This document shows, one piece after another, positions 5,993-57,460 of a DNA stretch of 64,000 bases. This DNA is from a virus. Lineage: Duplodnaviria > Caudoviricetes. The notes beneath the pieces were generated by a model. The model ran no database searches, was not told the origin of the DNA, and saw only the letters and a list, made by a program, of their open reading frames with translations. Position numbers and translations under genes: made by a program. The stretch spans positions 1 to 64,000 of the IMG/VR virus record IMGVR_UViG_3300011008_000049; one strand, written 5' to 3'. Each line of letters opens with the position of its first letter. Position 1 is the stretch's first letter.

Positions 5993-6178
5993 ATGGAATA
6001 TAAACCGAAAAGATATATCATTGAAATGTGCAACGATTTTGTAAAAAGGCACGAAAACGCCGGAAACATTGAGAGCGCCCGGAAGATTGACAGAATCCGA
6101 AATGATTATATTTGCGGAATGCTGACGGAAATTGATGCTATAAAATCAATCATGGCAGAGGAGGAAAAAGAAAGATGA
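5993..6178 (+). CDS. hypothetical protein
   Basis: GGAGG RBS. Confidence 0.7.
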   Translation: MEYKPKRYIIEMCNDFVKRHENAGNIESARKIDRIRNDYICGMLTEIDAIKSIMAEEEKER

Positions 6179-6447
6179 AACGAATCGCGGAAAATTTTGA
6201 TGAATTTATCGTCAAGGTAGAGGAAGCGGAAAGAACGGTATTAAATACCGAAATCGGGCAGCAATTCACAAAGGAATATTTGAAAGAGTGTTTACGGAAA
6301 AATCCAGGAATGACGGCGGAAGAATGGACGGAAAAGAAAAGCGAATTGATGACCGTTATATTCTTGATGTTCGTCAAGGAAAATCCGGAAGCGTTCAAAG
6401 AATTTGCGGAACATACATACAACGAATTAAGGAAGGAGGAAAATTAA
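6175..6447 (+). CDS. hypothetical protein, paralog of 22531..22815
   Basis: ATGA overlap; shared GQ..NP.MT.EEW..K....IF...KENP pattern. Confidence 0.75.
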   Translation: MKRIAENFDEFIVKVEEAERTVLNTEIGQQFTKEYLKECLRKNPGMTAEEWTEKKSELMTVIFLMFVKENPEAFKEFAEHTYNELRKEEN

Positions 6448-6511
6448 AGCCGAAACGGGCGGAAGCCCGTCACCGGAAAGATGGGCTATCCGGTCTGATG
6501 ATGGCAGCCCG

Positions 6512-7135
6512 ATGGAGGAAAATATGAAAAGAATATCAGAGCTTTTAACACTTGAAAAGGAATCCGATGTAAAAATCGCATATTGTGAAATCATATCGGA
6601 TTATACAAACGAAAAGGAAAATACAAGAACACGAATTTTATTTGATGAGCATACCGGAAAATATTATTTCCACCAGATGAAAGACGGAAAAATTTTGAAA
6701 TGTTTTGAAATCGCTTTATCGTGGAAACCGTTTGAAAAGATTTATATATTCTGTTTTACGCTGGATGATATGCACGTTTACGAAATCGACTCACGGCAGC
6801 CGGAGAAAATCGAAATTAAAAAGTTGGAGGAAAATCAGATAAGCGCCGGAATGAAATGCGAATATGACGGAATGACGGTTGAATATGAATCGGAAAATTC
6901 TTTGAAATTCAATGGAAAATCTATTGAAGTGATACCGGAATCCGGATATGTTTTCAAGTTGAGAAAACGGAAGATATACGCCCAGGACGGAGCAAAAGGA
7001 TTATATATCTTTTTGGAAAATATCGCGGTGAATGGAAATTTTGCCGGACACGGTGAAGATATTAAAATCGGAAATTTTGTTTTAATGTCGCCGGATAGAA
7101 ATTACTGGATGAGATTTAAGGATATGTATTTATAA
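6512..7135 (+). CDS. hypothetical protein
   Basis: 207-aa ORF in early operon. Confidence 0.75.
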   Translation: MEENMKRISELLTLEKESDVKIAYCEIISDYTNEKENTRTRILFDEHTGKYYFHQMKDGKILKCFEIALSWKPFEKIYIFCFTLDDMHVYEIDSRQPEKIEIKKLEENQISAGMKCEYDGMTVEYESENSLKFNGKSIEVIPESGYVFKLRKRKIYAQDGAKGLYIFLENIAVNGNFAGHGEDIKIGNFVLMSPDRNYWMRFKDMYL

Positions 7136-18131: not shown

Positions 18132-18179
18132 TTGACAATTTGAATTTCGCAGGGTATAATAGTAGTAAATCAATTACTA
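18132..18179 (+). promoter_or_regulatory. sigmaA promoter with TAGTAA-N5-TTACTA operator
   Basis: TTGACA-N17-TATAAT; palindrome 18163-18179. Confidence 0.8.
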
Positions 18180-18203: not shown

Positions 18204-18500
18204 GTGAAAGATAAGATTGCAGCACAAATTTTGATTTACAATGACCTATGGGAGAAAACAGATAAATCTGTAATTGCTGACAATGTGGAAAAATATCTGT
18301 TTATCAAATTTCCGGAGTGTTCGGGGGCGTTTGATACCAAAATGAACAAACTGGAAGAAATAACAGGTTCAAAAAGACAAACAATATACGCATGGTTGAA
18401 CCGGAGCAGAAACAGAGTAAAAGTACCGTTAATGAAACTATGTACGATTGCAAACGCATTGGATGTTGATATTGCGGATTTATTGAAAAAGGAAGATTGA
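18204..18500 (+). CDS. Xre-family HTH regulator
   Basis: LEEITGSKRQTIYAW...LCTIANALDVDIADLL. Confidence 0.75.
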   Translation: MKDKIAAQILIYNDLWEKTDKSVIADNVEKYLFIKFPECSGAFDTKMNKLEEITGSKRQTIYAWLNRSRNRVKVPLMKLCTIANALDVDIADLLKKED

Positions 18501-18531: not shown

Positions 18532-18560
18532 TTGACAAACCGAAGGAATTGTGATATAAT
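18532..18560 (+). promoter_or_regulatory. sigmaA promoter upstream of riboswitch
   Basis: TTGACA-N17-TATAAT. Confidence 0.85.
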
Positions 18561-18568
18561 ACATTACA

Positions 18569-18650
18569 CTATCAAGAGTGCGTAAGGGAGCAAGCCCAAT
18601 GACCGCACAGCAACCTACCAGATGGCAAGGTGCTAATGCTTGACCGATAG
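18569..18650 (+). promoter_or_regulatory. SAM-I family riboswitch aptamer (P4-less, SAM-I/IV-like)
   Basis: CTATCAAGAG..AGGGA..GCCC.ATGA..CAGCAACC..AAGGTGCTAA..GATAG; P1 CTATC/GATAG; CAAGC/GCTTG pseudoknot. Confidence 0.8.
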
Positions 18651-18670
18651 GATTATATGAGATTATTCCC

Positions 18671-18701
18671 TATCCTATCGGTAACGATGGGATATTTTCT
18701 T
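18671..18701 (+). terminator. riboswitch-controlled intrinsic terminator
   Basis: TATCCTATCG-GTAA-CGATGGGATA then TTTTCTT; competes with ACCGATAGGAT/ATCCTATCGGT antiterminator. Confidence 0.7.
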
Positions 18702-18743
18702 ATGAACTCTGATAAATAATCTAAATTTATTGGAGGATTTGAA

Positions 18744-19064
18744 ATGAACAGAACTATTAGAAAATTGGCAGAGAAGAACGGCAGAGTTTATGTATATCTT
18801 GCAAACGGAGAAATTGGAAATAAATTCTTGCAGCAAGCCGAATCGGAAGGATTTACTTTTTGTGACGGTGCAAAACCTACTGAAAGATGTTATGCAGAAA
18901 TTATGACGGTAAACCGTGATATTACTATTAACTTTGTCGGAGCAAATGGAAGAATTGCATTCGGCGCAGGAGCAAAGAAAATCGGAGACGAAGAACTCAT
19001 CCGCGTTGATTATGAAAAGTATATCGCCGGAGACGAGGACTATAATTTCAATGGCAAACATTAA
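18744..19064 (+). CDS. hypothetical protein under riboswitch control
   Basis: GGAGG RBS, first ORF after riboswitch. Confidence 0.75.
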   Translation: MNRTIRKLAEKNGRVYVYLANGEIGNKFLQQAESEGFTFCDGAKPTERCYAEIMTVNRDITINFVGANGRIAFGAGAKKIGDEELIRVDYEKYIAGDEDYNFNGKH

Positions 19065-19219
19065 CCAAAACACAGTTTTCTTCATGGAGAAAAACATTCA
19101 CGGCGCATGGGTTGTCTATGGTACAGAAGGAGTAAAACAATACTATGGATATACGAAAGCCGAAGCCAGGAAGAAATATATTGAAGAATGTAAAACAATA
19201 ATTAATCAAAGGTGATATT

Positions 19220-19426
19220 ATGAAATGTCCATATTGTGAAAATGATACAAACGATTTTATCATCTTAAATCAAACTGTTGAATATTCCGGAATTGAAATG
19301 GCAGTGAATAGGCAAGGTTGTTTGAGAGTAAGAACATATCCAGATGGAACAGACAATAATTTTGATTCGCAGGATATAGTTGAAATAAAGTATTGTCCGA
19401 ATTGCGGAAAACGATTTATGAAGTGA
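19220..19426 (+). CDS. small zinc-finger protein
   Basis: CPYC...YCPNCG. Confidence 0.7.
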   Translation: MKCPYCENDTNDFIILNQTVEYSGIEMAVNRQGCLRVRTYPDGTDNNFDSQDIVEIKYCPNCGKRFMK

Positions 19427-19436
19427 GGTCTAATGT

Positions 19437-19769
19437 ATGAACAAAATGCGCGTTTGGTGGATTCCGCAAGTTGGAGCGGATGCAACCTTTTATGTGCCAG
19501 TTGAAACAGTTGAAGAAGCAAAGAAAGTTATGGATATGCTTGCAGCTTATGACTGTTTCCAGTATAACCATAGAATTAAGCCAGATTTTTGTAATACCGG
19601 TGGGCTTCAAGTGTGGGACGAAGCAGAGAATGATTGGGTCGATTGGACTTATGAGGATGATGAATCCTACTATGATGATGTCGATGAGTATTGTGAGGAA
19701 AAATCTGAAAAGTCGGAAGAACTTTCTGAATTTACAAAATCAGTAATGTCGCAAGTTGAATTCGATTAA
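19437..19769 (+). CDS. P22 gp17-like (superinfection-exclusion escape) protein
   Basis: RVWWIPQV..LAAYD.FQY...IKPDFCN.GGL, recalled from the gp17 family. Confidence 0.55.
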   Translation: MNKMRVWWIPQVGADATFYVPVETVEEAKKVMDMLAAYDCFQYNHRIKPDFCNTGGLQVWDEAENDWVDWTYEDDESYYDDVDEYCEEKSEKSEELSEFTKSVMSQVEFD

Positions 19770-20331: not shown

Positions 20332-20382
20332 TTGACAAATCGGGAACACTATGCTATAATGAGTATAGTAAATGAGTTACTA
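20332..20382 (+). promoter_or_regulatory. sigmaA promoter with TAGTAA-N5-TTACTA operator
   Basis: TTGACA-N17-TATAAT; palindrome 20366-20382. Confidence 0.8.
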
Positions 20383-36754: not shown

Positions 36755-36831
36755 GCGGGCATGATGTTTAATGGTTAGCATCCCAGTTTTCCAAACTGGT
36801 TGTGAGGGTTCAAATCCCTTTGCCCGCTCCA
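36755..36831 (+). tRNA. tRNA-Gly(TCC)
   Basis: Cloverleaf, loop TTTCCAA, CCA end. Confidence 0.9.
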
Positions 36832-36835
36832 ATAT

Positions 36836-36909
36836 TGGGATATGGTGTAATGGTAACACACAAGACTTTGACTCTTGCTTTGTAGGTTCGAGTCCTGCTA
36901 TCCCAGCCA
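36836..36909 (+). tRNA. tRNA-Gln(TTG)
   Basis: Cloverleaf, loop CTTTGAC, CCA end. Confidence 0.92.
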
Positions 36910-36912
36910 TTT

Positions 36913-37003
36913 GGAGAGGTAATCCTAATTGGTAAGGAAGCAGTTTGCTAAACTGTTAGTAACCAGCAATGGCGTGTGAGTTCGAGTCTCGCCCTCTCCG
37001 CCA
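36913..37003 (+). tRNA. tRNA-Ser(GCT)
   Basis: Long variable arm, loop TTGCTAA, CCA end. Confidence 0.9.
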
Positions 37004-37006
37004 TTT

Positions 37007-37083
37007 AGGAGAGTAGTTTAACGGTAGAACTCCGGTCTCCAAAACCGATGTAGATGAGGGTTCAAATCCTTCCTCTCCTGCCA
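37007..37083 (+). tRNA. tRNA-Trp(CCA)
   Basis: Loop CTCCAAA, CCA end. Confidence 0.88.
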
Positions 37084-37088
37084 AATAT

Positions 37089-37164
37089 GAGCCAGTAATT
37101 CAGTTGGTAGAATATCGCACTTTTAATGCGAAGGTCATGGGTTCGAGTCCCATCTGGCTCACCA
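37089..37164 (+). tRNA. tRNA-Lys(TTT)
   Basis: Loop CTTTTAA, CCA end. Confidence 0.92.
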
Positions 37165-42746: not shown

Positions 42747-42831
42747 GCTGGCGTGGTGGAATTGGCAGACACGCAAGATTAAGGTTCTTGTTCCGTAAGG
42801 AGTGCAGGTTCAAGTCCTGTTGCCAGCACCA
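42747..42831 (+). tRNA. tRNA-Leu(AAG)
   Basis: Leu-type D-loop and variable arm; loop TTAAGGT. Confidence 0.88.
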
Positions 42832-42835
42832 TTAT

Positions 42836-42922
42836 GCGGGAGTGACGGAATTGGCAGACGTAGCGGACTTAAAATCCGCTGGTAGCAATACCGTGTGGGT
42901 TCAAGTCCCATCTCCCGCACCA
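42836..42922 (+). tRNA. tRNA-Leu(TAA)
   Basis: Loop CTTAAAA, CCA end. Confidence 0.93.
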
Positions 42923-42926
42923 ATAT

Positions 42927-43001
42927 ACTGCATTAGCTCAACGGTTAGAGCAATCGCCTTATAAGCGATAGACATTAGTTCGACTCTACTATGCAGTACC
43001 A
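42927..43001 (+). tRNA. tRNA-Ile(TAT)
   Basis: Loop CTTATAA, CCA end. Confidence 0.85.
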
Positions 43002-43083
43002 ACGGCGACTTTCTTAAAAGTTAGTTCTTTAAGCCGGAAAAATCAAAGTAAACTACGCTTGACATTCGGAGAGACGATAATAC

Positions 43084-43173
43084 GGTGAGGTGGCAGAGTC
43101 CGGCTTATTGCACCAGTCTTGAAAACTGGCGGCGGGAAACCGTCCCTGGGTTCAAATCCCAGCCTCACCGCCA
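43084..43173 (+). tRNA. tRNA-Ser(TGA)
   Basis: Loop CTTGAAA, long variable arm. Confidence 0.92.
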
Positions 43174-43319
43174 TAAGATTGCCGATGATACGAATATAGG
43201 CGGTGCAAATTGCTCATAAGTGTGAATCTCGCAAAGTCATCGTTAGCGACCTCCGTGGATGCTGCTCCTATGGCTGATGGCATCTATCGGCAATCGAAAT
43301 TATATTGCTGGAGGAAACA

Positions 43320-43589
43320 ATGTTTAGAAATGTTGTGGTTGGGAAACCTCTTGTGGATGTAAGAATGTTGTTATCGGAAGATGAGGAAGATTGGGAAAGA
43401 AATGAGAAAAAAGATACTCTTTTTACTGAAACAAGATTCCTTCCGGCAATATTAAAGGAAGCAGGTGTTGTTTCGTCAACCGGAGAAATAAGAAGAAACA
43501 AACCTGACCTTGTAATAAATTTGGATAAACCAGATTGTCTATGGGTTAAATGGGGCAAGAAATTTATTTACATAGTTGTCGGTGAATAA
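43320..43589 (+). CDS. S4-like RNA-binding domain protein
   Basis: ILKEAGVVSSTGEIRRN...VKWGKK resembles the TyrRS C-terminal S4 domain. Confidence 0.55.
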   Translation: MFRNVVVGKPLVDVRMLLSEDEEDWERNEKKDTLFTETRFLPAILKEAGVVSSTGEIRRNKPDLVINLDKPDCLWVKWGKKFIYIVVGE

Positions 43590-43592
43590 TAT

Positions 43593-43669
43593 GCGCCATT
43601 AGTTCAGATGGATAGAACAATGGACTTCTAATCCATAGGTCGAAGGTTCAAGTCCTTCATGGCGTGCCA
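43593..43669 (+). tRNA. tRNA-Arg(TCT)
   Basis: Loop CTTCTAA, CCA end. Confidence 0.92.
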
Positions 43670-43673
43670 ATAT

Positions 43674-43758
43674 GCTGGTATGACGGAATCGGCAGACGTG
43701 ACAGACTCAAAATCTGTTGCCGAGAGGCGTGTGAGTTCAAGTCTCACTACCAGTACCA
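43674..43758 (+). tRNA. tRNA-Leu(CAA)
   Basis: Loop CTCAAAA, CCA end. Confidence 0.92.
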
Positions 43759-43759
43759 T

Positions 43760-43835
43760 TGCGGGATAGAGAAGCGGTCATCTCACGACCCTCATAAGGT
43801 CGGAATCGTGGGTTCGAGTCCCACTCCCGCAACCA
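43760..43835 (+). tRNA. tRNA-Met(CAT), initiator-like body
   Basis: Loop CTCATAA; fMet-like acceptor/D arm but no GGG/CCC anticodon stem. Confidence 0.85.
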
Positions 43836-43838
43836 AAT

Positions 43839-43915
43839 CTGGATGTAGTTCAGTTTGGTAGAACGCTGCATTTGGGATGCAGAGGTCGCAGGTTCGAGTC
43901 CTGTCATCCAGACCA
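43839..43915 (+). tRNA. tRNA-Pro(TGG)
   Basis: Loop TTTGGGA, CCA end. Confidence 0.93.
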
Positions 43916-56215: not shown

Positions 56216-56401
56216 TAAAAATGAAGTTTGGAATTTGGCAAATCATTTATGTAGGTCTTATATTGATTGGTATTGGTATTTCCGCTGGTAAGCACGGACA
56301 GCCGAGAACCGACAAATGGAATGTTTGGGCTACATTGATTTCCGCTGCTATTGAAATTACAATTCTCGCATTTGGCGGATTCTTTGGGTAAGGAGATTAC
56401 T

Positions 56402-57460
56402 ATGGGATATTTCTATTCAAATGAAATTGTATTTAAGGGGCATCCAGACAAAGTGTGTGACCAAATTAGTGATGCCTTGTTAGATGCCTATTTACAGCAA
56501 GACAGAAATAGTAGATGCGGAATTGAAGTTGTTGGAGGCAAAGGCAAAATTTTCATTACTGGCGAGGTCAGTTCCAGAGGGAATATCAACATTGTAGAAA
56601 CCGTTAAAAAAACTCTGCGAGATGTAGGATATGCTGGAACTTACGATGTTGTATATGATATTGGATTTCAGTCTCCTGATATTGCGCAAGGAGTTGATGT
56701 TGGCGGAGCGGGCGACCAAGGTATGATGTTTGGCTATGCTTGTCGAGACACAGAAGAATATATACCTACTGCTATGGCTATTTTGCAGCAATTGTCTATG
56801 TTCTATGACCGTTTGAGAAGAATTGATTCTCGCTTTTTACCAGATGGTAAGGCGCAAATAACAGGTCACTATGATGACAATGACAAACTTGATTATATCA
56901 AAGACTTTGTTATTTCATATCAGAACACAGAGGAATTCCGGCAAGATACAGACCAAATTCTTAAAGACTATTGTGAGGAATTATGTTCTGAATATGGTAT
57001 TCCAATTAGAACATTTCATATCAATCCAACCGGTAAATTCTTAATCGGCGGATTTGAAGGAGATGCTGGATTGACCGGCAGAAAGATTGTTGTTGATAAC
57101 TACCATTCATTTGCTAATGTAGGCGGCGGTGCATTCTCCGGTAAAGACGGAACAAAAGTAGACAGGAGCGGAGCATATAAAGCACGTCAACTTGCTATTC
57201 GCTGGCTCAAAGAACATAAATCTGCGTATTGGTGTGAAGTTCAGTTATCTTATGCAATCGGAATGGCAAAACCTCTTGCCGTTTATGTAAGAACAAACAA
57301 TGGAGATTTCGATTGTACGGAAGAATTTGCTGATGAATGCACTCCGGCAAAGATTATTGAAGAATTTGGTCTGAACAATCCAAAGAAAATTAGATTCTTT
57401 GATACCGCTCAATTCGGTCATTTTGGTCATTCAAGTTTTCCGTGGGAGAAAACAAAATGA
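56402..57460 (+). CDS. metK: S-adenosylmethionine synthetase
   Basis: GHPDK, QSPDI, GAGDQG, GLTGRKI, GGGAFSGKD; AAGGAG RBS before 56402. Confidence 0.95.
   Translation: MGYFYSNEIVFKGHPDKVCDQISDALLDAYLQQDRNSRCGIEVVGGKGKIFITGEVSSRGNINIVETVKKTLRDVGYAGTYDVVYDIGFQSPDIAQGVDVGGAGDQGMMFGYACRDTEEYIPTAMAILQQLSMFYDRLRRIDSRFLPDGKAQITGHYDDNDKLDYIKDFVISYQNTEEFRQDTDQILKDYCEELCSEYGIPIRTFHINPTGKFLIGGFEGDAGLTGRKIVVDNYHSFANVGGGAFSGKDGTKVDRSGAYKARQLAIRWLKEHKSAYWCEVQLSYAIGMAKPLAVYVRTNNGDFDCTEEFADECTPAKIIEEFGLNNPKKIRFFDTAQFGHFGHSSFPWEKTK

Follow-up and report, generated by a model that had tools for sequence, protein, structure and literature searches.

The closest described relatives of the element treated here are the classical S-box or SAM-I riboswitches, represented by those of Bacillus subtilis yitJ and metI and by the metF aptamer of Thermoanaerobacter tengcongensis, in which S-adenosylmethionine (SAM) turns expression OFF. 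A leader of this family was found in IMG/VR virus record IMGVR_UViG_3300011008_000049 (Caudoviricetes), which comprises 152,621 base pairs (bp) with an estimated completeness of 99%. The window analyzed is the part of this record from position 1 to 64,000, and all coordinates refer to it. The phage is apparently lytic and of a gut or rumen type. Its leader sits between a helix-turn-helix gene (18204-18500) and a run of small genes. It is held, with good confidence, to be a functional SAM-I riboswitch without helix P4, serving as the sensor of a self-contained cassette that is made up of a promoter, the riboswitch and one gene for a protein of ~100 amino acids (aa).

The phage leader shares with the classical S-box leaders the core motifs (AGAG of J1/2, GCAACC and GGUGCnAA), helices P1 to P3 and the pseudoknot. 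As in those leaders, the 3' strand of P1 is common to an antiterminator, the 3' strand of which is in turn common to a terminator, the arrangement that underlies OFF control by SAM. However, it has no P4 and no recognisable methionine or SAM target, it resides in a phage, and it probably contains an additional layer in which the Shine-Dalgarno (SD) sequence is sequestered. Some natural SAM-I aptamers do without P4 and function, affinity dropping as P4 becomes shorter (PMC12714719). As such members are recognised in the literature, a missing P4 does not exclude membership of SAM-I. The P4-less aptamers of a group of Actinomycetota (PMC12714719) resemble the phage leader in having a SAM-I core from which P4 has been deleted, but here the carriers are Bacillota (Ruminococcaceae and relatives) and their phages, and the expression platform is based on a terminator. 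SAM-IV (RF00634) and SAM-I/IV (RF01725) of clan CL00012 likewise have a SAM-I-like core without P4 inside the junction. In these two classes, however, a P4 hairpin stands on the 3' side of P1 and the P3 loop takes part in a second pseudoknot. For the phage leader, SAM-I (RF00162) is the best-scoring covariance model of the clan.

Riboswitches were found to be rare in phages in a survey of 2017 (PMC5473149). Those reported earlier include cyclic di-GMP (c-di-GMP-I) riboswitches in prophages of Clostridioides difficile and glutamine aptamers in cyanophages and phage Melnitz (PMC5473149, PMC9004378). These are also phage-borne metabolite switches that regulate phage genes, but they belong to other ligand classes, whereas the leader described here is part of a cassette that is common, one exact core of 19 nucleotides (nt) being enough to retrieve it from 37 viral contigs. 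No description of this cassette was found in the literature searched for phage SAM riboswitches. Control of two expression levels by one aptamer is known from the dual-acting riboswitches of Escherichia coli lysC and, with Rho, of thiM, ribB and mgtA. The two levels proposed here would be different, namely intrinsic termination and SD sequestration by a segment that pairs alternatively with the 5' strand of the aptamer. Compared to the literature searched, the switch logic is classical; new are the phage setting, the strict link to a large protein family and the probable two-level platform.

Anatomy and covariation of the leader

The Rfam SAM model (RF00162) matches 18566-18653 with 56.0 bits (gathering score 44.4; E-value 3e-10 over the whole window), and no further match to it occurs in the 152,621 bp of the genome. 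Homologous leaders score between 45 and 60 bits. P1, P2, P3 and the conserved junction nucleotides are all retained in the model alignment, while P4 is gone, 1 nt standing in for 18 model positions. The original prediction, made from the sequence alone, had described a promoter, a SAM-I-family aptamer lacking P4 and an antiterminator (18643-18682) and terminator (18671-18701) that exclude each other, together acting by transcriptional OFF logic, and it had named covariance models as a way to check the aptamer. The RF00162 match, above its cut-off and the best-scoring of the clan, and the replacement of P4 by a single nucleotide bear out the aptamer. The promoter was found as well, both hairpins were located at these positions, and the anatomy of P1, antiterminator and terminator supports the OFF logic (Table 1).

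The promoter agrees with the sigma-70 consensus at 12 of 12 positions and includes the TG extension, its -10 hexamer occupying 18555-18560. The predicted transcript start (~18566-18568) coincides with the foot of P1. Equivalent consensus promoters precede the homologous leaders. Within 2.2 kb three perfect 12/12 sigma-70 promoters occur on the + strand (18132-18160, 18532-18560 and 20332-20360), which suggests an early region read by the host polymerase.

The antiterminator overlaps the P1 3' strand at 18646-18650 and the 5' arm of the terminator at 18672-18680, and antiterminator and terminator are mutually exclusive. The ligand-free minimum-energy fold includes the antiterminator, so the default state would be ON. 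Covariation was analyzed in an alignment of 40 distinct homologous leaders of the terminator class, with 500 shuffles as control. In the combined structure of aptamer and terminator (P1, P2, P3, pseudoknot and terminator) 93.6% of the cells were paired and compensatory changes were seen in 20 of 39 pairs, none of the 500 shuffles being as good; the covariation score was 0.30, against at most 0.08 in register-slid controls. P2 and the pseudoknot were paired in 100% of cells, with double changes in 5 of 8 and 3 of 4 pairs, respectively; CAAGC/GCUUG, for example, is replaced by CAGCC/GGCUG in the pseudoknot. Pairing amounted to 95% in P3 (4 pairs with double changes), 96.3% in the terminator stem (5 pairs) and 76.6% in P1 (3 pairs). 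The antiterminator, scored separately, was paired in 87.5% of cells with double changes in 6 of 11 pairs, and again 0 of 500 shuffles did as well. Covariation thus supports both of the alternative hairpins. Furthermore, loops of the GNRA type recur in the homologous terminators (GUAA, GUGA, GAAA, GCAA and GGAA).

This anatomy suggests the following course of events. When SAM is plentiful, it would bind the nascent three-helix aptamer and lock P1 (18569-18573 with 18646-18650). With P1 locked, 18672-18680 would be available for pairing with 18685-18694, so that the terminator arises and transcription ends at the U-run. A shortage of SAM would instead allow the 11-bp antiterminator to form, and RNA polymerase would continue into the gene at 18744-19064. 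Read-through in this phage would extend to three more small genes, of which the GP17-like gene is the last.

A second, translational layer, which the original prediction did not include, probably acts on the read-through RNA and would give a two-level OFF switch; this proposal was made from pairing predictions. Segment Y, downstream of the terminator, is complementary to the 5' side of the aptamer, namely the P1 5' strand and the conserved AGAG of J1/2, and it can also form a hairpin with 18725-18735 that covers the SD sequence GGAGGA (18732-18737). In the window 4 of 5 SD nucleotides are paired, the hairpin has a z score of -2.9 and the two pairings of Y overlap by 8 nt. Among 70 unique leaders, the SD sequence is paired in 53 and the same nucleotides are used for both pairings in 46; for the duplex of Y with the 5' side of the aptamer, the median energy is -13.6 kcal/mol, and half of the leaders have a z score below -2, the lowest being -6.7. 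An aptamer closed by SAM would leave Y free to hide the SD sequence, and an open, unliganded aptamer would capture Y and free the SD sequence. The leader provides a small, naturally occurring SAM-I aptamer without P4, in which transcriptional and translational control are seemingly combined.

Table 1 Features of the leader and of the genes behind it in the window
Feature	Position	Strand	Description
Sigma-70-type promoter	18532..18560	+	-35 TTGACA 18532-18537, 17-nt spacer, extended -10 TGaTATAAT ending 18560
SAM-I (S-box) aptamer without P4	18566..18653	+	RF00162 match; covariation in P2, P3 and pseudoknot
P1	18569-18573 with 18646-18650	+	5 bp
P2	18578-18582 with 18604-18608, plus 18586-18588 with 18595-18597	+	
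Pseudoknot	18591-18594 with 18639-18642	+	P2 loop to J3/4
P3	18609-18619 with 18624-18634	+	
Antiterminator hairpin	18643..18682	+	18643-18653 with 18672-18682, 11 bp, perfect complement, -15.0 kcal/mol
Intrinsic terminator	18671..18701	+	18671-18680 with 18685-18694, 10 bp, GUAA loop, -13.5 kcal/mol, then UUUUCUU 18695-18701
Second platform (probable)	18706..18737	+	Segment Y 18706-18717 (ACUCUGAUAAAU) pairs with 18570-18579 or with 18725-18735
Cassette gene	18744..19064	+	106 aa; large unannotated family; confident alpha/beta model
Small open reading frame	19051..19215	+	54 aa; overlaps stop of cassette gene; no family; conserved in 11 related loci
Zinc-ribbon-like open reading frame	19220..19426	+	68 aa; weak matches only
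GP17-like gene	19437..19769	+	PF17420; PHROG 1510 'superinfection exclusion'

The cassette and its link to SAM synthetase

Searches with the 106-aa protein encoded directly behind the leader yielded 10 loci from IMG/VR and 60 from metagenomes, and another 32 came from bacterial genomes or metagenome-assembled genomes (MAGs). An RF00162 match lies directly upstream of the family gene in all 10 IMG/VR loci, and a riboswitch was found upstream of it in 88 of the 99 loci with enough upstream sequence. The link between riboswitch and gene holds down to ~30% protein identity. Among the loci without it, one copy has diverged and one is a remnant truncated at the 5' end; two or three copies have a plain promoter, and six lie behind another open reading frame (ORF). 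The truncated remnant (L095:2441-2776) has lost the P1 5' strand and P2 and has kept P3, the antiterminator and the terminator; it may be a constitutively antiterminated copy.

The exact 19-nt core of the leader occurs in 37 viral contigs, the first gene behind it encoding the family protein in 29 and metK in none. In the remaining contigs the first gene is another unannotated small ORF. At least three other types of such ORFs stand behind the same leader in phages or prophages (L113:1675-2097; L134:8515-8946; L153:2764-3102 on the - strand; L163:1678-2094; L144:2277-2729). None of these ORF types has a Pfam match or is significantly related to the main family. The ORFs of L113 and L163 were considered as distant members of the family; this was rejected, as hhalign gave no significant match and no Pfam match was found.

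Most copies of the cassette belong to viruses or prophages. Its surroundings differ from copy to copy, and in some cases it is opposite in orientation to its neighbours. When 32 different downstream genes were compared across loci, every Pfam family was seen only once. Hosts to which a name is attached belong to Ruminococcus, Ruminococcaceae, Acutalibacteraceae and other rumen and gut Clostridia. In a nucleotide comparison with isolated phages, the leader was shared by a single one, the 59-kb Ruminococcus phage NatCom_28274 from human faeces; its leader is 82% identical and its first gene 45% identical. One copy (L106:4826-6293) has bacterial chromosomal genes as neighbours (yicC, gmk, rpoZ, rimO); here the same leader precedes a fusion of the family domain with a D-2-hydroxyacid dehydrogenase (430 aa). 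The conserved unit is the promoter, the riboswitch and one gene, which form a mobile cassette. The original prediction had taken several downstream genes as targets, including a gp17-like gene. Of this target set the first gene (18744-19064) stands as the conserved target, but the gp17-like gene follows in only 14 of ~100 loci, all of them in related large phages. A SAM-I switch is thus found as a widespread mobile phage cassette, against the rarity of phage riboswitches in the survey of 2017 (PMC5473149), and its recurrence together with the gene in ~100 phage, prophage and Clostridia loci points to a hitherto unexplored way of responding when SAM is scarce.

The phage has a metK gene, coding for SAM synthetase, at 56351-57460. 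Covariance-model scans gave no SAM-family match upstream of it, in agreement with the original prediction, which had noted a phage metK without a visible riboswitch. In some lineages of cassette-bearing genomes, metK is found under canonical, P4-containing SAM-I leaders that score 70-87 bits. In one Ruminococcaceae lineage, on the other hand, the chromosomal metK of five genomes (L111, L122, L124, L127 and L128) is preceded by the same P4-less leader with a near-identical aptamer; the MetK proteins of this lineage are 87-91% identical across the five genomes. This metK leader has the same antiterminator and terminator design as the phage leader, but it controls a chromosomal SAM synthetase, whereas the cassette leader is mobile and controls a protein of ~100 aa. 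Feedback control of SAM synthetase is the task most characteristic of a SAM sensor. Since the same P4-less leader stands on a housekeeping metK, the leader very probably senses SAM. The P4-less form is a known natural variant and not a new class; as P4-less SAM-I aptamers are known in the literature and the same leader is present on a chromosomal metK, it is not a phage invention either.

Three-helix and four-way folds

Several observations speak against the P4-less SAM-I reading or parts of it. The identity of the ligand is drawn from homology and from the metK link. P1 is a stem of only 5 bp, and P2 of the window has UAA / AAUGAC where the kink-turn consensus has GGA / UGAA (AA for GA); most homologs have GA at this position. 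Weaker SAM binding has been reported for P4-less aptamers (PMC12714719). In the second layer, the duplex of Y with the aptamer is modest in the window (-9.6 kcal/mol, z -1.1). Some 11% of the loci lack the riboswitch. Finally, the P1 3' strand (X1) and the terminator 3' arm (X3) are almost identical in sequence, which makes a four-way reading possible, with the 'antiterminator' hairpin as P4 and X3 closing P1. According to this alternative the real aptamer would extend over 18566-18693, with 18686-18690 of the terminator 3' arm in P1. SAM would then stabilise the non-terminated fold and so turn expression ON; otherwise the stem before the U-run would be provided by P1 itself. Indeed, the four-way fold is the minimum-energy fold of 18566-18701 (-37.9 kcal/mol, which is 2.4 kcal/mol more stable than P1 plus terminator at -35.5 kcal/mol), and for several homologs cmscan picks an alignment with a full P4 at an equal or higher score (L002, 59.9 bits; L012, 59.6 bits). 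In a small subgroup of leaders (L006, L018, L020 and L023) a genuine P4 with covariation is present, and behind it come the P1 3' strand and the U-run.

However, pairing of P1 with the terminator 3' arm showed double changes in only 1 pair (4 cells), which is no better than in shuffles, and pairing to this arm is an automatic result of a terminator/antiterminator design. At the variable position of P1, U-A changes to C-G jointly with X1 (18646-18650) in 11 sequences; double changes with X3 number 0. A P1 closed by the terminator arm was rejected as the main aptamer because it has no support from covariation. The conserved GNRA tetraloops at 18681-18684 fit a hairpin loop and not a junction. 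As the primary decision fold the four-way junction would also provide no clear switch, because in both states the strand before the U-run is paired.

A short class of leaders points in the same direction. It consists of 10 unique leaders without antiterminator and terminator (L027, L029, L032, L059, L060, L076, L081, L092, L096 and L101), in which there is no hairpin able to be P4. J3/4 leads straight into the P1 3' strand, which is followed by an anti-SD/SD hairpin. As the strands of the antiterminator and terminator are missing here, the aptamer is evidently used without P4 in this class. Its control is apparently translational only, and the two-level design proposed above would explain how it works without a terminator. 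Taken as the real aptamer, the four-way fold was judged very unlikely. A milder version is compatible with the three-helix model: the four-way fold may form only in the read-through mRNA, SAM still closing translation. The classical P4-less reading is favoured over the four-way junction as the fold that makes the decision. In the P4-bearing subgroup (e.g. L006:2837-3004) P4 is inserted ahead of ACC-AAUGGG, the same context as that of X1, and the U-run follows directly after the P1 3' strand, there being no separate terminator hairpin.

Genes under control and possible roles of the 106-aa protein

The four tightly packed genes at 18744-19769 form a probable operon with the GP17-like gene last. 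No terminator-like site was found on the + strand between 18701 and 20223. The GP17-like gene was identified by PF17420 (83.4 bits against a cut-off of 25; E-value 1.4e-23) and by PHROG 1510 (E-value 3.6e-27). Where related loci share these genes with the window, they all belong to related large phages; the GP17-like gene lies behind the cassette in 14 of them, and 11 have the 54-aa ORF. The original prediction had listed the downstream genes as hypotheticals and a gp17-like gene; the PF17420 match agrees with the latter, and the first gene has no family match.

Clustering of the family of the 106-aa protein gives 152 groups when the identity threshold is 90% and 445 when it is 50%. Approximately 29 of the 106 positions are invariant, and these are mostly polar or aromatic. 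The protein has no match in Pfam, PHROGs, PADLOC, NCBIfam or a PDB sequence profile. AlphaFold gave a model with an alpha/beta fold (predicted local distance difference test 85, predicted template modelling score 0.80). A structure search with the 18744 protein, which the original prediction had also proposed, returned no usable match in PDB or BFVD: the best hits were at E-value 1.7 for Foldseek against PDB, at Z 3.2 in the wide VIA-align search and at E-value 8e-3 in BFVD, the latter to uncharacterised proteins. A RegA-like cluster, the nearest named one in the ESM Atlas (score 0.85), was discarded, as this score is at chance level. Longer forms of the family include tandem duplications, MORN-repeat tails, one read-through into a hexapeptide transferase and the 2-hydroxyacid dehydrogenase fusion; no consistent fusion partner was found among them. 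Five members (P0121, P0136, P0177, P0208 and P0267) hold two copies of the domain in one chain, from which it may be supposed that the single-domain protein works as a dimer.

The riboswitch names the cue of its gene and ties low SAM to a family of 445 clusters without a known fold. Under OFF control by SAM, production of the protein would be confined to times of low SAM, as it would be for the host-lineage metK with the same leader, and as this control is shared with metK the protein would belong to the low-SAM response. The best guess, weakly held, is that it helps the phage or lysogen to cope with a shortage of SAM or to correct it. A generic structural or replication function seems less likely. 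The phages concerned make their own SAM synthetase and DNA methyltransferases. Through the link with low SAM, a phage gene that was anonymous now poses a testable question, namely how phages manage or exploit the supply of methyl donor.

A tentative explanation for such a role is that the protein is a metabolic helper which phages took over from the S-box regulon of the host. It would then be an enzyme or a ligand-binding factor of small size in the methionine/SAM economy, and its gene would be kept, along with the original feedback switch, as an auxiliary metabolic gene. The leader is of the same type as that of the chromosomal metK of the host lineage, the link with the riboswitch persists down to ~30% protein identity and the ~29 invariant, mostly polar or aromatic residues suggest a pocket. 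The chromosomal copy fused to D-2-hydroxyacid dehydrogenase behind the same leader also fits a metabolic role. In B. subtilis, yoaD, which codes for a member of the D-2-hydroxyacid dehydrogenase family, is part of the S-box regulon. However, the fusion is a single case in a family that is mostly viral or prophage-borne, the protein counts only ~100 aa and neither its fold nor its sequence is linked to any enzyme. In addition, several unrelated small ORFs use the same leader in phages. Taken together, a metabolic helper is possible but doubtful.

Rather unlikely is a stand-alone 'SAM-scarcity alarm', in which the leader would act as a three-helix aptamer at the transcription decision and as a four-helix aptamer in the read-through mRNA, with the antiterminator as P4, and the protein, of a new fold, would serve in conflicts between phage and host or between phages. 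If so, the protein could be, for example, a back-up for when DNA methylation fails or a response to SAM-degrading rivals. The other ORF types found behind the same leader (L113/L134, L153/L163 and L144) would then constitute a phage 'low-SAM regulon'.

Slightly less probable again is a role in counter-defence. It was considered, after the original prediction, that, once SAM is too low for protection by methyltransferases, the 106-aa protein, possibly with the GP17-like protein, blocks restriction or another defence of the host. The phage carries its own metK, and the cassette, with its own promoter, lies among early genes beside a gene for an LPD29 polyvalent protein and the GP17-like gene; in Ruminococcus phage NatCom_28274 the cassette faces a DNA methyltransferase. 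The protein, however, resembles no anti-restriction or defence-related family or fold, and judged from its sequence it is not acidic like DNA mimics. Moreover, its neighbours are not conserved, and one copy of the cassette, the one with the 2-hydroxyacid dehydrogenase fusion, lies among ordinary chromosomal genes of a bacterium. Since the protein has no match in PADLOC, Pfam, PHROGs, NCBIfam or PDB, no result specifically supports counter-defence, which is speculation. The least probable purpose is that of a conflict sensor, by which a lysogen would read depletion of SAM by an invader (e.g. through a SAM lyase) or by other stress and release an exclusion or abortive effector: the cassette is built like a moron, since it brings a promoter and a terminator of its own, is inserted at diverse sites and in some cases runs opposite to its neighbours, and it adjoins a 'superinfection exclusion' family gene in large phages, but it has no PADLOC match and no toxin-like feature and is also found in this apparently lytic 152-kb phage with early-type promoters.

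Other RNA elements were seen in the window and near one copy of the cassette. A match to the Hammerhead type II ribozyme (RF02276; 43.8 bits against a cut-off of 37) lies at 6448-6513 on the + strand, between ORFs 6175-6447 and 6512-7135. There are 13 tRNA matches in total, and two arrays of tRNA genes are located at 36757-37161 and 42747-43912 (+ strand). In a Clostridia MAG, a Gut-1 RNA (RF01706, 65.2 bits) was found at L098:7967-8039, ~4 kb downstream of a cassette copy.

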